From: Candidatus Babeliales bacterium
GTDB taxonomy: Bacteria; Babelota; Babeliae; Babelales; JBFXEV01
Direction of reading: 5' to 3'
DNA: 64,000 nt
Assembly (NCBI GenBank): GCA_050179755.1
Contig: JBFXEV010000001.1
Location: forward strand, 425,994-489,993
The translations under genes and the position numbers were made by a program. Below, in pieces: positions 57,553 through 64,000 of the stretch (positions within the stretch are counted from its first letter, which is position 1; every line of letters starts with the position of its first letter). The notes beneath the pieces are model-generated. The model ran no database searches. It was not told where the DNA came from and was given only the letters and a program-made list of their open reading frames with translations.

Positions 57553-58089
57553 ATGCACACTCATAACAAAATTGTTTCTTTTTTCTGCTTTCTCATTTTT
57601 TACTCTGCAGTATCCACTGCTATGCACACAACTACTTCACAAAAACACACGCATTTAAGCCGCGTACTATCTAAAGAACTTGATCATACCATGGCACAGT
57701 TATTTGGTGTTACCGAAAATACATCCCACGATATATGTTTAGAAGTGGCGTTATTGAAAGATTCTACGCTTACCCTTATTTTGCAAGAAGCTCAAAAAAC
57801 AACATATACATATAATGCGCAATGCATAGAAGCTGCACGCAAAAGAACTCGCCGTCATCTTACCCATGCCATTGGCAACTTTGCACGCACCATCTATGTT
57901 GCGCATTATGCAAACCCCAATCATCACCAGTTGACAAGCACATCCATTGCAAATGCGCTTTGTATCAAGATACGAGCAGATGCATTAGTTGCCTATGAAC
58001 TATCAACACTAAAATCACCGCTAGCAAGTTTTACGGGCCAAGCATTGCGCGAACGCATAGAAAATTTGCTTGACCCGTTTAAATACTAA
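57553..58089 (+). CDS. Secreted hypothetical protein
   Basis: AAGGA RBS; STA-MH signal. Confidence 0.55.
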   Translation: MHTHNKIVSFFCFLIFYSAVSTAMHTTTSQKHTHLSRVLSKELDHTMAQLFGVTENTSHDICLEVALLKDSTLTLILQEAQKTTYTYNAQCIEAARKRTRRHLTHAIGNFARTIYVAHYANPNHHQLTSTSIANALCIKIRADALVAYELSTLKSPLASFTGQALRERIENLLDPFKY

Positions 58090-59534
58090 ACAGAATCTTT
58101 TTTCTGCTCTAACGTGTAATCCTTCACCTCTTGCGCTATTTCATACATGCGCTGCGTCATTGCCCGCAACTTCTCAGGTTTGCCAAGCAGATAAAACCGC
58201 ATAGATACGTTTTCTGGCTTTGCAAGTTCAGGGTGCAAAAGCACGCGCGCTTGATGTGGCCAGAGCACATTTTGTGTTTCAGGATCCTCAAGCCAACCCA
58301 ATGCTTCTGGATTTCTATGCGTGCGTATACCAAGCGGCTCTGATAAATAGCACCATTTTTTTGCCAGTTCCTCTTTGATGCTTAATTGCAGCAACCCAGC
58401 ACTTGCAAGCGATTCCATTGCATTAAGTTCTGCACGATATTTTTCATATAATGCTTGCGCACCATATTCTTTAAACGTATCATGCATAAATGCATTATGC
58501 GCATCACCCTTAAAGCGTTTATCAAGCAACGCAGGAAATGAAGTAACTAACCGTGGATTTTTTACTAAATCCCATGCAACTTGGCCTGCAAGCAACAAGG
58601 CAACCAGCGGCCCGCCAGCATAACCGGCTATTGCTACATCAAGCGCCTGATAACCCCACGATGAAGGCCGTGTTACAAACTCAGCGCTTGAGTCTTTATA
58701 ACCATCGCGCCACCAGCAATTTTGCCCAAAAAAACCAAGGTTGGTTGAAAGCAAATGCTTTTGCGCAGGCCCTTTATCAAAAAGTACTGTATATTCACCT
58801 GTTGGCATAGATCCGCACCCGGGTATGCGCTGCATCACTTGCTCATGCGGTGCTTTATCTATATTGGCATCATAATATGCATGCACATCGTGATATTCAC
58901 CAAGATCGGCAACGGTTGAATCATCACGCAACTTTACAAAATGTTCACGCTTTTCTTGAGCGCGCAGCACTTCATCAAATATCGTGCGCAATACTATGCT
59001 TGCACCCTGACTGGTGCCATGCACCAAGGTAACGTTACCTGCTAAGCGCTGATCATGCTCCTCGATTGAAAGTTCTTGCACAAGCGCGGTGAGCCGATTA
59101 CGAGATGTGGGTAAAAAGTTCCAAAAATGGGCAAACAACGTGCCATCCACACGATCAACATATTTGTGACTAAACTTAGCCTTTAACTGCGCAAGTGGTG
59201 CATACGTATAGTACCAATCTTGATCAAATTGGCGCTTGGTTACCGAATGTGTTAACGCCTCCATATCACGCTGATCACTCAGCACGGGAGCCAGCGTTTT
59301 TAAACTTAATGGCGTGCTTACGTCTACAAAACGCAGCTTTTTTTCATGCACATGATCATATACCGAGCCTGCAGTATACAAACCCGCGGTAGCAACAATG
59401 CATTTAGTAAGCGCAGGTTTGCTTTTTAGCGTTTCAAAAAATTGAGTACGAGCACCTTTCATAGCCAAAACAGATGGCATAAATAATGCACTTGCCAGCA
59501 TACAAAATGCGGCAAAAAGAGTATTGGTATTCAT
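58086..59534 (-). CDS. Secreted hypothetical protein (possible ART-like domain)
   Basis: VLA-MK signal; LVHGT...LLSTN..FFG...LLQLSI...YLSEP.G. Confidence 0.6.
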   Translation of the reverse strand: MNTNTLFAAFCMLASALFMPSVLAMKGARTQFFETLKSKPALTKCIVATAGLYTAGSVYDHVHEKKLRFVDVSTPLSLKTLAPVLSDQRDMEALTHSVTKRQFDQDWYYTYAPLAQLKAKFSHKYVDRVDGTLFAHFWNFLPTSRNRLTALVQELSIEEHDQRLAGNVTLVHGTSQGASIVLRTIFDEVLRAQEKREHFVKLRDDSTVADLGEYHDVHAYYDANIDKAPHEQVMQRIPGCGSMPTGEYTVLFDKGPAQKHLLSTNLGFFGQNCWWRDGYKDSSAEFVTRPSSWGYQALDVAIAGYAGGPLVALLLAGQVAWDLVKNPRLVTSFPALLDKRFKGDAHNAFMHDTFKEYGAQALYEKYRAELNAMESLASAGLLQLSIKEELAKKWCYLSEPLGIRTHRNPEALGWLEDPETQNVLWPHQARVLLHPELAKPENVSMRFYLLGKPEKLRAMTQRMYEIAQEVKDYTLEQKKDSV

Positions 59535-60861: not shown

Positions 60862-61188
60862 TTACTTATATCCTTTGAAAAGCTCTTGTGGCTCTTTTCC
60901 TATTAAAGCAAAAAGATGAGCCAAACTTGAAAGCGTTAAATTTGCTTCTCCTCTTTGTATTTTTGCAACATGCGTTGGGCTGGAATCTAAGCGACGGACC
61001 AACTCATTAAAGCCAATGTTGTTTTTCTCCATATAATCGGTTAAAGCATCTGAAATAAGATTTTGAATAAACCTCAAAATCGCAACTTCTCGTTTCGCTT
61101 GCCGCGTTATTTGAGCTATTTCTTTCTTATTAAGTCGCTTTTCTAAATATTTCTCAAAATTGGTTTTTTTCATTATCATTCTCCTCAC
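60862..61188 (-). CDS. XRE-type HTH antitoxin
   Basis: ELVRRLDSSPTHVAKIQRGEANLTLSSL; follows the toxin gene. Confidence 0.75.
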   Translation of the reverse strand: MRRMIMKKTNFEKYLEKRLNKKEIAQITRQAKREVAILRFIQNLISDALTDYMEKNNIGFNELVRRLDSSPTHVAKIQRGEANLTLSSLAHLFALIGKEPQELFKGYK

Positions 61189-61523
61189 ACTTCTAGCAAA
61201 CGATCTCTTGCTATCCGAATATCTCTTTCTTGACTACTTTTATCTCCTGCTGCAAGCACAATTATAATGCAGTTCCCTTGAAAGCCATAATACATTCTAT
61301 AACCAAATTTATACTCTCTTAACTCAAAAAGACCTTGGCCTAACGCCTTACTATGCGGCAATCTTAATGTGTTACCTGCAAAACCAAGCATACGCAGCTC
61401 TTTCGAGATAGCTTTAAATTGCTCTTTAGTTAATTTATCAAGCCATTTTTCAATGGGGCTTTGACTACCAGGAGTCTCCCAAAATTTTACCTGCCATTTC
61501 TTCACTCTATACCTTCGCATCAA
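61185..61523 (-). CDS. RelE/HigB-like type II toxin
   Basis: SPIEKWL, LPHSKALGQGLFELR, YRMYY, GDKSSQERDI..AR. Confidence 0.8.
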   Translation of the reverse strand: MMRRYRVKKWQVKFWETPGSQSPIEKWLDKLTKEQFKAISKELRMLGFAGNTLRLPHSKALGQGLFELREYKFGYRMYYGFQGNCIIIVLAAGDKSSQERDIRIARDRLLEV

Positions 61524-61856
61524 AGAATCTTATTACTACATTTTAATTTACTACATTTCAGTGGAGCACGTCAAGAGCTCTCACTAAACATCAGCAACTC
61601 ATGCTAAATACTAAAGTAGCGAGTAATTCTTACCTGTTTAAATACTCATAGAAACCCTCCACCAAACAATGTTTTCTTATAGAAACAATTGTTTGCTCAA
61701 ATGCGCTCTCTATGCTATACTTCAAACAAATAGGAGTCTTGTTTATGGCTCCTTTTTTTGCATTAAACCTTATTTTTGGATCCGACTTCGCTAAAGCTAT
61801 GTCGTGATTCTAATTACGCCAAAGCTCCAGAGGAGCGACGGCAAATGGAGGATCTC

Positions 61857-62381
61857 ATGAAAAATAAATCAATTTTAATGCTCTCTTTTTTAATACTCCC
61901 ATTGTCCCAAAATGCTGCGTGCTCCCATGCAAAACAGAGTGTGGTGCGTATAACAAACCGCGAAGCATCACTCTTTGACCCAGAACGGTTAGGCCATTTT
62001 GTTGATGCATTGTTTGCATTTTATGAGCAAGATTATACAACACAACTTGAGATTAATGCTATTAAAGCAACCGCTCTTCATAATGCGCGTAAGCAATACC
62101 AATACATTCAAAGACAGGGGTGGAAAATATGCGTCTGGCCACAAGATCTGTTAGAAGATTATCTTGCCGATGCTCTAGCACAACATGCTCGCCAATGCTA
62201 TGAGCACAAAATCAGGATGTATAAACCCTCTCATTATGTTGATAGAGCAGATGAGGTGGAAACAAGCTTTAAAGAGCAAGCTCGTGAAAAGATTAACTCG
62301 GGCAGGTATGGTTGCCTTCGTTTTTTTGTGGGTGAAAGCCTTGAAAAACAAATAGCGCCTTTTTGCACTATAGTTAAGTAA
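61857..62381 (+). CDS. Secreted hypothetical protein, RING-less paralog of the next gene
   Basis: GGAGG RBS, MKNKSILMLS; TQLEI.AIK, L.FFVG..L shared. Confidence 0.7.
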   Translation: MKNKSILMLSFLILPLSQNAACSHAKQSVVRITNREASLFDPERLGHFVDALFAFYEQDYTTQLEINAIKATALHNARKQYQYIQRQGWKICVWPQDLLEDYLADALAQHARQCYEHKIRMYKPSHYVDRADEVETSFKEQAREKINSGRYGCLRFFVGESLEKQIAPFCTIVK

Positions 62382-62415
62382 ATATTGAAAACTAAATCTT
62401 AGTTTGGAGGATCTC

Positions 62416-63552
62416 ATGAAAAACAAATCTATATTAATGCTTTCTTTATGTGTACTCACCTTTGCAACGCACAACATGCAGGCACGCGATAATAGTTGGT
62501 TTGAATACTTTGTAAGTATTTTTTGGAATACTAATAAAGATGCGGAACAGCCAAAACTAGAACCCAGCCTACGCCAAGGCGCCCAGCCTTCGCATAAAGC
62601 TACGGCGGATATAACCGGCGGTCAGGCCGGCCAACAAAATATGCCAAAGCCGTCGGCACCCCCGCTTGAACAACCGCAACAATACAATGCAAAAGCACCT
62701 ACTGCTAAATCAGCGGGCATCACAAATGCTGAGTATAATACTGTGCGGTATCAGATTGAATCTATTATTGATGGGTTATTTGCGACAAAAGAACAAGAAC
62801 ATGCCACTCAGCTTGAAATTCAAGCGATAAAAGATAAAACGTTGCATTGTATTGGTGAGCGCATACGCAACATTGCCACGTTGCCAGAGTTTCGCCAGGC
62901 AGCAAATCACTATCTGACTGAATATCTTACAAAAACTATTGCTTATAATGCACGGCTTTTGTATCAACAAAAAGCAAATAAGCTTGCTGTGCAATTAGTA
63001 CAGAGTCAGCCACTTGCCGAGCATTTAGAAAAAGAAATCAAAACACACGCACTCAAAGCAATCAACTTAAATGAGCCCGGTGTGCTTGCATTCTTTGTAG
63101 GCAAAGCCTTGGATGAACGCGTTGCAGCACAAATAAAACGGGACTTCGCTCCAATCCTTCGACAAGCTCAGGATGAGCGACAAGTAAATAAAGCAAGCAA
63201 ACAGCCTCAATCAATCGTCCAACACCCTAAGCCTAGTGCGCCGCCGGCAGAGCATCATACAGCGATGCGCCCTGAAATCTATGAAGTGTATGTGCATTCA
63301 AATGCAGCACGGTATGAAGAATCTATAGCAAGAATACAACAAGGCAAAGCATTTCGTGATGAGCCTGAATGTGTTATGTGCTTTGAAGAATTTGGCGGCT
63401 CAAGAAAGCGCGTAACGCTTGTATGCGGGCATACTATATGCCCTGCGTGCTTGCAACTTCATTTGCAAAAAAATGATACGTGCCCAACTTGCGCTGAACC
63501 AATTGCGCCAGATGAGTTCCCGGCAGCATATTTACATAAATACAACAATTAA
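62416..63552 (+). CDS. Secreted RING-HC (C3HC4) protein, candidate E3 ligase effector
   Basis: CVMC-x13-CGHTICPAC-x11-CPTC; signal peptide; two PSAPP motifs. Confidence 0.85.
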   Translation: MKNKSILMLSLCVLTFATHNMQARDNSWFEYFVSIFWNTNKDAEQPKLEPSLRQGAQPSHKATADITGGQAGQQNMPKPSAPPLEQPQQYNAKAPTAKSAGITNAEYNTVRYQIESIIDGLFATKEQEHATQLEIQAIKDKTLHCIGERIRNIATLPEFRQAANHYLTEYLTKTIAYNARLLYQQKANKLAVQLVQSQPLAEHLEKEIKTHALKAINLNEPGVLAFFVGKALDERVAAQIKRDFAPILRQAQDERQVNKASKQPQSIVQHPKPSAPPAEHHTAMRPEIYEVYVHSNAARYEESIARIQQGKAFRDEPECVMCFEEFGGSRKRVTLVCGHTICPACLQLHLQKNDTCPTCAEPIAPDEFPAAYLHKYNN

Positions 63553-63586
63553 CTTACATTAATGGGCGCATTTCAAGAACAATAAG

Positions 63587-64000
63587 TTACTGCGATGCGC
63601 CCATTAACCTTTTTACATTCTCGGCAATGCCCTCACGAAAATTCTCTTCACACTTACTGGGATCTAGCAAGTCTAATAGCTTAAAATAGTTAGTGGAATC
63701 CTTCATATTTGCATGTAATTCTGGATGCAATGGACTTAATAATAGAAGCGCCGTATTACGCACAACAACATCATCAACCACTTCTGATTCCATTTTTTTT
63801 GAGCTACACAAATACACGTCTTCTGGGTATACGTAGGTCATGAAGTACCGTATAAGCCCTACATTATTGTCACTTGGTTTTACAATGTTGCATAATGGGC
63901 TTATTCTTGCCACATCATCCCCCATTAGCTGTTCAAACAACGTAAATTTTAAACGCGCACCATGCTCCATCAATAGTTTAATAAGGTCTAAAAGCATTTC
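63587..64000 (-). CDS. C-terminal part of a protein running off the window (ankyrin-like remnant)
   Basis: LIKLLMEHGA; ORF lies at the window edge, so its true start is probably outside. Confidence 0.45.
   Translation of the reverse strand, partial: EMLLDLIKLLMEHGARLKFTLFEQLMGDDVARISPLCNIVKPSDNNVGLIRYFMTYVYPEDVYLCSSKKMESEVVDDVVVRNTALLLLSPLHPELHANMKDSTNYFKLLDLLDPSKCEENFREGIAENVKRLMGASQ

Follow-up and report, generated by a model that had tools for sequence, protein, structure and literature searches.

A RING protein of a Babeliales bacterium with a signal-peptide-like N-terminus and two PSAP motifs: a candidate effector directed at host ESCRT-I

Results

Gene organisation and paralogues

All positions refer to the window, the whole stretch of 64,000 nucleotides that was analysed, which lies in the 1.5-Mb genome of a Babeliales/Dependentiae bacterium. 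A gene near its end encodes a 378-aa protein, hereafter the RING protein, in which a signal-peptide-like N-terminus, a helical domain, and a C-terminal RING finger are joined by linkers (Table 1). This protein was aligned with 8 close homologues (42–47% identity; A1, 9 sequences), and a second alignment (A2) held 47 family members. Family-wide counts were taken from the 156 top-ranking proteins in a profile search over 1.84 billion representatives; since some of the 156 are eukaryotic (e.g. one nematode protein), not all counts are bacterial, and since family members are related, independent events are fewer than the counts.

Table 1 Features of the RING gene and its paralogues (positions in the window)
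Feature	Positions	Strand	Residues	Basis and remarks
Third, more distant paralogue of the helical domain, without RING	57553..58089	+		BLASTP
Tandem paralogue, without RING and without PSAP (signal peptide and helical domain only)	61857..62381	+		BLASTP
Shine-Dalgarno sequence GGAGGA	62406..62411	+		Read from DNA; 4 nt 5' of ATG at 62416
Whole gene (signal-peptide-like N-terminus, helical domain, RING)	62416..63552	+	378 aa	Open ORF; stop TAA 63550-63552
Signal-peptide-like N-terminus, MKNK / SILMLSLCVLTFA / THNMQA	62416..62484	+	aa 1-23	By inspection
Conserved aromatic segment SWFEYFVSIFWN, shortly past the predicted cleavage site	62494..62529	+	aa 27-38	Alignments
PSAP motif 1, PKPSAPP, then LE	62644..62664	+	aa 77-83	A1; pLDDT below 50
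Family-specific all-helical domain	62713..63201	+	aa ~100-262	pLDDT 84-92
PSAP motif 2, PKPSAPP, then AE; 41 residues N-terminal of RING	63226..63246	+	aa 271-277	A1; pLDDT below 50
C3HC4 RING finger	63370..63492	+	aa 319-359	Pfam PF13639
'Linchpin' position past the last RING Cys (Arg in family)	63493..63495	+	Ala360	Alignments
C-terminal tail EPIAPDEFPAAYLHKYNN with conserved DEFPxxYL	63496..63549	+		A1; RNF4 alignment

For the helical domain, Pfam gave no match, Foldseek against the PDB returned nothing at E ≤ 0.001, and the ESM Atlas yielded no usable match. The best Z of VIA-align wide was 7.3, obtained with generic helical proteins and too low to be meaningful for helical folds. The domain recurs in two paralogues in the window. 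The upstream paralogue showed 29% identity to the RING protein over aa 95–237 (BLASTP, E 8e-14), and its head (61846–61903), which includes the Shine-Dalgarno sequence, the start and signal-peptide DNA, is shared with the RING gene, the 58 nt being 83% identical. The pair of genes is also present in a same-genus genome. The third paralogue showed 30% identity (BLASTP, E 1e-4) and was matched by the A2 profile (G000:C1:483495-484076, E 2.6e-9).

N-terminal region

The putative Sec signal peptide was called by eye from the n/h/c arrangement of the first 23 residues, and the homologues show a like layout. The n-region and h-region are clear, and the candidate cleavage site between MQA and RD has Ala at -1 and Met at -3, with VQA, VHA or VRA as the counterpart of MQA in homologues (A1). 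A hydrophobic N-terminus and a C-terminal RING were found together in 98 of the 156 family representatives. In the aromatic segment that follows, S27 and W28 are invariant in the nine sequences of A1, and distant family members carry [DE]xSW[FL]xxF segments resembling it (A2); our guess is that the segment could be a membrane-binding amphipathic helix. An N-terminal 'SW[FWL]' export tag shared across the family was considered and dropped, the strict regular expression having matched only 19 of the 156 family proteins. Likewise, no clear sharing of this segment by other signal-peptide proteins of the genome was seen.

RING finger and the residue following it

The RING is of the eukaryotic type, and its eight zinc ligands (C319, C322, C337, H339, C342, C345, C356, and C359) are spaced as C319-x2-C-x14-C-x-H-x2-C-x2-C-x10-C-x2-C359, in agreement with the cross-brace pattern C-x2-C-x9-39-C-x1-3-H-x2-3-C-x2-C-x4-48-C-x2-C. 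Across the 47 members in A2, six of the Cys ligands never vary, and conservation reaches at least 90% at H339 and C345. Three Pfam families passed their cut-offs, namely zf-RING_2 (PF13639; 35.3 bits vs 27.3), zf-RING_5 (PF14634; 30.7 vs 27.9), and zf-C3HC4_3 (PF13920; 29.8 vs 27), while Prok-RING_4 (PF14447) remained below its cut-off (21.3 bits vs 27). The RING protein was the only zf-RING_2 match in the genome (1.525 Mb). No U-box or F-box-like families were found in the genome; the U-box result is a weak negative, since its control also matched nowhere. The block mean pLDDT over the RING region (aa 311–370) was 63–85, with the lowest value, 63, over aa 311–330 where the RING begins. A Foldseek search with the whole protein returned TRAF6, RNF4, gp78, and RNF125 at probabilities of 0.75–0.95, with E-values of 0.5–1.7.

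The closest solved RING by sequence was that of RNF4 (1.3e-9). Between the CGH motif and the last Cys, the two have equal ligand spacing, and their C-terminal tails are similar in length and align with each other; D366 in the tail of the RING protein is invariant in A1. They differ in that RNF4 has SUMO-interaction motifs and an Arg past the last Cys, whereas the RING protein has PSAP motifs and, aligned with the Arg of RNF4 CPTCR, Ala360. In RINGs of the RNF4 type, this linchpin Arg matters for activating E2~Ub, and it is missing from some active RINGs. Of the 98 family members that combine a signal-peptide-like N-terminus with a C-terminal RING, 83 have Arg at this position, as do at least 90% of A2; 15 of the 98 have no Arg there, and Ala is found in the RING protein alone. 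Since Ala360 replaces the linchpin Arg of the family, this protein is possibly a weak ligase. The substitution weakens the part of the earlier note in which the protein was read as an active E3, and this copy may, judging from its sequence, be more a docking or decoy protein than a strong ligase.

PSAP motifs of the RING protein

The P-[ST]-A-P core (ELM LIG_PTAP_UEV_1) was matched at aa 79–82 and aa 273–276. The earlier note had described a signal peptide, a C-terminal RING and, within linkers, two PSAP motifs; this anatomy proved right, with the signal peptide judged by eye and the RING recognised by Pfam, and the ranges it gave for the motifs (62650–62664 and 63232–63246) are exactly the PSAPP cores. 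Both motifs are predicted to sit in disordered, accessible linkers: motif 1 falls within aa 14–98 and motif 2 within aa 265–287, stretches whose pLDDT is below 50 and which lie between confident domains. P, Q, A, and S abound in these linkers. The codons of the two PKPSAPP copies differ at 5 of 7 positions (cca aag ccg tcg gca ccc ccg vs cct aag cct agt gcg ccg ccg), and a repeat search found no DNA repeat linking them. The two copies are thus kept at the protein level and do not stem from a recent DNA duplication.

In the genome as a whole, 13 P[ST]AP were counted among ~1419 crude ORFs, compared with 7.4 expected from composition, and the RING protein is the only one of these ORFs that holds two. 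The other PSAP proteins of the genome look unrelated and lend no support to a wider set of PSAP effectors.

Conservation of PSAP in the family

PSAP is conserved across the family at shifting positions, together with PPxY and ASAP variants. At site 1, PSAP is present in 8 of the 9 A1 sequences, with P77, P79, S80, and P82 invariant; at site 2, it is present in 7 of 9 and aligns with the pre-RING PSAPs of distant members. The A1 linkers are variable around the motifs, and the RING protein has insertions of ~20 aa ahead of each. Among the best 156 proteins, PSAP was found in 54, and in a ranking of 4-mers it came third, behind the RING-core words PCGH and CGHD. The family consensus is PxPSAPP[LA][ED]. 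In shuffle controls (300 each), the mean and maximum numbers of PSAP proteins were 0.6 and 3 when whole proteins were shuffled, 1.6 and 6 within 30-aa windows, and 2.7 and 8 within 15-aa windows. Conservation of PSAP in homologues, the check that the earlier note had proposed, thus went far beyond expectation (54 of 156 vs at most 8 in local shuffles).

PSAP is present in 43 of the 98 proteins defined above, and 48 contain at least one of PSAP and PPxY; both motifs are absent in 50, so the motif is not obligatory in the family. The P[ST]AP of these 98 proteins (53 PSAP and 3 PTAP) occupy three places: 31 are 7–78 aa N-terminal of the RING, 13 are 12–53 aa past it, mostly at the very C-terminus, and 12 are in the N-terminal linker. 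These three different positions, from which alone the number of independent gains was judged, suggest that PSAP was placed more than once. Twelve proteins of the family contain PPxY, 18 times in all, and in 4 proteins it overlaps with PSAP as PSAPPxY. In a genome-based sample of Dependentiae loci, there were 30 distinct RING ORFs, of which 9 have P[ST]AP. Descent of the family from giant viruses was also considered: the search of viral contigs with A1 found 7 relatives at the RING level, none with PSAP or PPxY, and these gave no evidence for such an origin.

Discussion

The explanation that we favour, at about even odds (roughly 50%), is that the RING protein is a Sec-exported effector which docks on host ESCRT-I through the UEV domain of Vps23/TSG101 and ubiquitinates Vps23/TSG101 or its neighbours. 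Export to the host cytosol, UEV binding, and E3 activity, which we infer, would proceed as follows. An obligately host-dependent Babeliales (Dependentiae) bacterium would export the protein by Sec and secretin-based machinery, or in outer-membrane vesicles. In the cytosol of the host protist, the PSAP motifs would dock in the UEV domain, and the adjoining RING would recruit a host E2~ubiquitin and modify Vps23/TSG101 or adjacent proteins. Endosome/MVB sorting around the bacterium would then be diverted or blocked, in a manner comparable with the host PSAP-bearing RING ligases LRSAM1/TAL and MGRN1.

The genome encodes a secretin (2 genes) and a T2SS-type ATPase (2 genes). In the portions of the accounts of Babela and Chromulinavorax drawn on here, eukaryote-like proteins with a signal peptide are regarded as secreted effectors, and type II is the sole secretion system found in Babela (PMC4378268; PMC6561590). 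As to the presumed partner in protists, a paper on Entamoeba Vps23 shows the UEV domain, and the portion of it used here contains no PTAP test.

The precedent named at the outset, eukaryotic ligases that combine a RING with PSAP to act on TSG101, is in print: according to the part of the source used here, LRSAM1/TAL, with tandem PT/SAP, and MGRN1, with PSAP, bind the TSG101 UEV through the motif and ubiquitinate TSG101 (PMC7073217). These ligases and the RING protein follow the same logic of a RING plus one or two P(S/T)AP. No homology was found beyond the RING, however, and the RING protein, in which Pfam recognised RING families only, has no LRR, SAM or MGRN1-type region. Unlike these two animal ligases, it is bacterial and has a signal-peptide-like N-terminus and a central helical domain matching nothing. 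On this comparison, the likeness is one of functional analogy, not of family membership.

Late-domain mimicry with P(S/T)AP and PPxY is textbook knowledge for enveloped viruses. Like the viral late domains of HIV-1 Gag p6 (PTAP) and Ebola VP40 (PTAP/PPxY), the bacterial family has PSAP, PPxY, PSAPPxY, and ASAP. The consensus PxPSAPPxE resembles the HIV-1 p6 late domain, the PSAP/PPxY overlap resembles that of Ebola VP40, and ASAP, which is found at the same place, is a viral late-domain variant. As far as the excerpted sources go, pathogens recruit TSG101 by short P(S/T)AP that lie in disordered stretches, in some cases with PPxY alongside them or in their place (PMC10159163; PMC8728146; PMC13532356), and Toxoplasma GRA14 and RON5 do so via PTAP (PMC10159163; PMC13532356). 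HIV-1 Gag p6, Ebola VP40, and GRA14/RON5 are structural or membrane carriers without a ligase domain, whereas in the bacterial family the motif lies beside a RING.

NleG and LubX are bacterial mimics of eukaryotic RING/U-box E3s that use host E2s, and effectors of this type reach the host through type III or type IV secretion. They are not known to carry late-domain motifs. The RING protein differs from them in its putatively Sec-dependent delivery and its canonical zinc RING. In Babela massiliensis, also of the Dependentiae, 'a RING finger domain protein' is reported as a potential E3, and the portion of that account used here mentions no family, helical domain or PSAP/PPxY for it (PMC4378268). 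No bacterial late-domain protein turned up in our literature searches, and none is named in the section on bacteria and ESCRT (section 11) of a 2023 review.

PSAP is also a PxxP sequence, here within a proline-rich linker, and another proline-recognition domain could be the partner. The exported RING effector would then dock on SH3, WW, another such domain or a protist-specific reader, and ESCRT-I would not be the target. The WW-type PPxY that some members have in the positions of PSAP, whether or not PSAP is also present, is in line with this alternative. Against it, the middle residues are almost fixed: the best 156 proteins contain 69 occurrences of PSAP vs 3 of PTAP, and other orderings of P, S, A, and P occur at most 5 times each, the overlapping SAPP excepted. 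A motif this strict differs from typical SH3 PxxP ligands and agrees with P(S/T)AP recognition, and the likeness to HIV-1 p6, the Ebola VP40 overlap and the viral ASAP variant points the same way. We consider a different reader unlikely.

That this copy is a pseudo-ligase of reduced catalytic power is rather improbable; in that role it would occupy Vps23/TSG101, or a different reader, as a decoy or scaffold and transfer ubiquitin inefficiently. Such a role would be consistent with Ala360 in place of the Arg of most family members and of RNF4, with the presence of two motifs, and with linkers longer than those of the orthologues. On the other hand, the RING retains its eight zinc ligands and an intact Pfam score, conservation extends to the DEFPxxYL tail, and Arg is also lacking at this position in other members of the family and, as mentioned above, in some active RINGs.

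PSAP might instead be a tag for export, sorting or processing on the bacterial side, or the protein might act in the bacterial envelope, host proteins being irrelevant. One clade has the motif at the extreme C-terminus (e.g. ...LWAPSAPPL-end), like sorting tags, and the N-terminus of the RING protein is of Sec type. However, in other clades the motif is internal, past the signal peptide or ahead of the RING, and the other signal-peptide proteins of this genome do not have it, P[ST]AP being as infrequent among the crude ORFs as described above. Moreover, we know of no partner for a zinc-binding RING in the bacterial periplasm. This alternative is very improbable. That the two PSAPP are a chance product of low-complexity linkers rich in P, Q, A, and S is refuted by the conservation in A1, where motif residues are invariant within variable linkers, by the differing codons and the 4-mer counts, and by shuffles that preserve local composition.

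Docking of the RING protein on ESCRT-I, the favoured reading, would be a new, bacterial case of late-domain mimicry, which has recently been extended to Toxoplasma. For the phylum as a whole, we tentatively propose, at somewhat short of even odds, that Dependentiae have evolved a family of Sec-exported RING ligases with interchangeable viral-type late domains (PSAP, ASAP, PPxY, and PSAPPxY), which would be the first bacterial late domains. If this is true, the hijacking of ESCRT-I, and perhaps of NEDD4-type ligases, by motif mimicry would be a strategy of long standing and wide use among bacteria against protists. Bacteria could by this means halt endosome/MVB maturation around themselves or, alternatively, pull host material across the surrounding membrane, as in the case of Toxoplasma GRA14. 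The statistically overwhelming, family-wide occurrence of PSAP beside a RING offers a testable handle on how the almost unstudied Dependentiae manipulate protists, and PSAP, ASAP, and PSAPPxY would provide a natural variant series for ESCRT-I recognition outside animals and fungi. ASAP and SSAP variants occur at the same C-tail position as PSAP, and SAP is found in 23 of 136 tails, compared with 0 for both SPA and ASP.

Organisation and predicted structure of P0001

P0001 is encoded by an intact ORF with GGAGGA 4 nt ahead of its ATG on sequence inspection, and its translated N-terminus (MKNK, then SILMLSLCVLTFA, then THNMQA) is laid out like a Sec signal peptide, as judged by eye. The earlier note had described two PSAPP motifs and a C-terminal C3HC4 RING in this protein. 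Both features were found: the motif positions it gave match the PSAPP cores of two PKPSAPP copies, and the Pfam model zf-RING_2 matched at 35.3 bits (cut-off 27.3), with two other RING models above their own cut-offs. The closest solved RING by sequence was that of RNF4 (1.3e-9). Since the codons of the two PKPSAPP copies differ at five of seven positions and a repeat search found no DNA repeat joining them, the repetition is kept at the protein level. An inverted repeat (window 63559-63607; 22-nt arms, 82% complementary, 5-nt loop, without a T-run) sits between the P0001 stop codon and a convergent minus-strand gene (63587-64588, genome ORF call) and may be a bidirectional terminator.

In an AlphaFold2 model built from the alignment of P0001 with its eight close homologues (mean pLDDT 67.9), residues 100-262 are confidently modelled as an all-helical domain (pLDDT 84-92), and the RING region (residues 311-370) has block means of 63-85, with the minimum at the RING start (residues 311-330). 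The pLDDT values fall below 50 in two long segments, residues 14-98 and 265-287, each of which holds one PSAP motif. The helical domain matched no Pfam family and no PDB entry in Foldseek at E ≤ 0.001; the best VIA-align Z, 7.3, was to generic helical proteins, and the Atlas gave no usable match.

Features of the P0001 gene and its surroundings (window coordinates unless marked C1, the genome contig)
Feature	Position	Strand	Basis or remark
P0001 ORF, intact, 378 aa	62416-63552	+	ORF reading
PKPSAPP copy 1	aa 77-83, 62644-62664	+	translation
PKPSAPP copy 2	aa 271-277, 63226-63246	+	translation
C3HC4 RING of P0001	C319...C359, C-terminal	+	Pfam
RING-less, PSAP-less paralogue	61857-62381		directly upstream of P0001 gene
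Third RING-less paralogue, more distant	57553-58089		
Gp49-like protein	61185-61523	-	PF05973, 41.7 bits
Small Cro/C1-type HTH protein	60862-61188	-	weak match, 19.8 bits vs cut-off 22
Large ORF, 564 aa	52922-54616	-	no Pfam match above cut-off
Large ORF, 867 aa	54714-57317	-	no Pfam match above cut-off
Large ORF, 482 aa, signal-peptide-like start	58086-59534	-	no Pfam match above cut-off
Secretin-domain gene 1	G000:C1:499870-500352		
Secretin-domain gene 2	G000:C1:504582-505052		

Conservation of PSAP in homologues

The eight close homologues of P0001 (330-340 aa) are 42-47% identical to it. In the nine-sequence alignment, the first PSAP was present in 8/9 sequences, with PSYP in the ninth, and the second in 7/9, and P77, P79, S80 and P82 were invariant. 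The linkers around the motifs were variable, and P0001 carried an insertion of about 20 aa ahead of each motif.

A profile of this alignment gave 3860 matches at E ≤ 0.001 (117 at E ≤ 1e-10) among 1.84 billion representative proteins, and the best 150 of the 3860 were combined with the first homologues into a set of 156 proteins. PSAP occurred 69 times in this set, in 54 proteins, and PTAP only three times; the remaining orderings of the four residues were found 0-5 times each, except SAPP, which overlaps the motif. By protein count PSAP was the third commonest tetramer of the best 156, behind the RING-core words PCGH (77) and CGHD (64), and its flanks gave the consensus P-x-P-S-A-P-P-[LA]-[ED]. 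When these sequences were shuffled 300 times per scheme, the number of proteins with PSAP averaged 0.6 (maximum 3) for whole sequences, 1.6 (maximum 6) within 30-aa windows and 2.7 (maximum 8) within 15-aa windows, against 54 observed, although motif counts are not independent events because the family members are related. PSAP conservation, the test that the earlier note had set, was thus borne out.

The motif is not general in the genome of P0001, where about 1419 crude ORFs contained 13 P[ST]AP motifs vs 7.4 expected and P0001 alone had two. Only one further protein of this genome, 340 aa long (G000:C1:879136-880158, minus strand), pairs a PSAPP[ED]-like context with a start resembling a membrane anchor. 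Its hydrophobic N-terminal segment is followed by ...LVTPSAPPEDSAF, and by eye the protein shows no relationship to the RING family.

Motif position, variants and family spread

A hydrophobic N-terminus was combined with a C-terminal RING in 98 of the 156 best-scoring proteins, 43 of which carried PSAP and 48 PSAP or PPxY. Among the 53 PSAP and three PTAP motifs of these RING proteins, 31 lay 7-78 aa before the RING, 13 lay 12-53 aa after it, mostly 2-4 residues from the C-terminus (e.g. ...LWAPSAPPL), and 12 were in the N-terminal linker, mostly in P0001's clade. The pre-RING motifs of distant subfamilies align with motif 2 of P0001 in the wider family alignment (47 members). SAP was found in 23 of 136 C-terminal tails (PSAP 16, ASAP five, SSAP one), and SPA and ASP in none. 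PPxY occurred 18 times in 12 of the best 156 proteins, with a PSAPPxY overlap in four. The strict four-residue core, the disordered linkers, a position that shifts between clades but is always near a RING, and the occasional swap or fusion with PPxY suggest that PSAP in this family behaves as a short linear docking motif; in form it matches the P(S/T)AP late domain.

The late domain of HIV-1 p6 is PEPTAPPEE, Ebola VP40 has an overlapping PTAPPEY, and ASAP is used by an orbivirus NS3; the family consensus and its variants are close to these viral motifs. P0031, a 307-aa metagenomic member with the pre-RING linker ...PKPSAPPAYAYPPAYSATPTPTAPPAYDYPPAYEAPPAY..., has five PPxY motifs, all PPAY; two of the five overlap PSAP or PTAP, in a manner resembling the overlapping late domains of VP40.

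The profile of the wider alignment matched 72/261 genomes of the phylum at E ≤ 1e-8, and 56/189 at ≥90% completeness and ≤5% contamination. In a sample of Dependentiae reference genomes that partly overlaps the representative set, 9/30 distinct RING ORFs had P[ST]AP and 2/30 had PPxY; neither P[ST]AP nor PPxY was seen in any of the seven RING relatives on viral contigs. Many of the members P0013-P0095 have a conserved [LFVY]-Y-P-S-[DE] immediately before the first RING cysteine, and in its place the clade of P0001 carries E-[IV]-Y-E-[VI]-Y, some 30 aa ahead of the RING; this N-terminal extension of the RING is specific to the family.

Ala360 in the RING of P0001

The residue right after the last RING cysteine was Arg in 83 of the 98 family members taken from the best 156, and this Arg was ≥90% conserved in the wider alignment. 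Whereas the RNF4 equivalent is the Arg of CPTCR, P0001 has Ala360 and is the only one of the 98 with Ala here. This 'linchpin' Arg helps E2~Ub activation in RNF4-type RINGs, and with Ala in its place P0001 may have only weak ligase activity or act as a docking decoy.

Genomic neighbourhood and export

The genome is a single contig of 1,525,295 bp (39% G+C), and P0001 is its sole zf-RING_2 match. It has two genes for T2SS-type ATPases, and its two secretin genes, whose open frames span 855 and 866 aa, neighbour each other 10-15 kb past the window's right-hand end. Members of the Dependentiae (TM6) are bacteria that depend on protist hosts. The relevant sections on Babela massiliensis report signal peptides on most eukaryote-like proteins, which are regarded as secreted into the amoeba; type II was the sole secretion system identified there, and 'a RING finger domain protein' is mentioned (PMC4378268). 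Those on Chromulinavorax report signal peptides on 44% of coding sequences (PMC6561590).

The paralogue next to the P0001 gene shares the signal peptide and helical domain with P0001 (29% identity, E 8e-14), and 58 nt covering the SD, start and signal-peptide DNA are 83% identical between the two genes. The RING gene and this paralogue also occur together in a same-genus genome. Taken together, the three large ORFs and the three helical-domain paralogues give the window's right end the look of a cluster of exported proteins specific to the lineage. The two-gene pair directly upstream of the paralogue cluster (60862-61523, minus strand) looks like a HigB/HigA-type toxin-antitoxin module.

Proposed function

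We consider that P0001 is probably a RING effector that is exported and whose PSAP works as a docking motif (probability roughly three in four). According to the pertinent sections of PMC7073217, PTAP/PSAP is bound by the UEV groove of TSG101, and two RING ligases that the earlier note had cited as precedents, LRSAM1/TAL with tandem PT/SAP and MGRN1 with one PSAP, bind the UEV and ubiquitinate TSG101. Motif mimicry for TSG101 recruitment is known from viruses and from Toxoplasma GRA14 and RON5 (PMC10159163, PMC8728146, PMC13532356). Based on the form and behaviour of the motif and these printed precedents, the most likely mechanism would be that P0001 is exported, that its PSAP docks on host Vps23/TSG101, and that the RING then mediates ubiquitination of Vps23/TSG101 or its neighbours. 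Counted against this ESCRT-I mechanism are Ala360 of P0001, the 50 of 98 RING family members with neither PSAP nor PPxY and, should the bacterium occupy a vacuole, the further step that a Sec/T2SS substrate would need to enter the cytosol; for protist UEV domains, the relevant part of a paper on Entamoeba Vps23 shows such a domain but no PTAP test. We give the full mechanism even odds. The observation of the earlier note is confirmed, and its interpretation of P0001 as a possible ESCRT/TSG101 hijacker is partly supported.

P0001 is a variation on two established themes, the RING-type effectors of bacteria and the mimicry of late domains. Neither this RING family nor a bacterial late domain was described in the literature found on Dependentiae RING, ubiquitin and ESCRT (Babela supplementary tables outside scope) or on TSG101/PSAP/PTAP mimicry and effector short linear motifs (Samano-Sanchez & Gibson 2020 outside scope); the section of a 2023 review on bacteria and ESCRT names no bacterial protein with a P(S/T)AP-type motif. 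At least one of the best 156 proteins is eukaryotic: P0128, a 218-aa Caenorhabditis remanei RING protein among the top 150, has two PSAPs and a pair of RINGs, and its ...DVGPSAPVEELED... segment is duplicated; LRSAM1 and MGRN1 are therefore not the only animal proteins to combine RING and PSAP.
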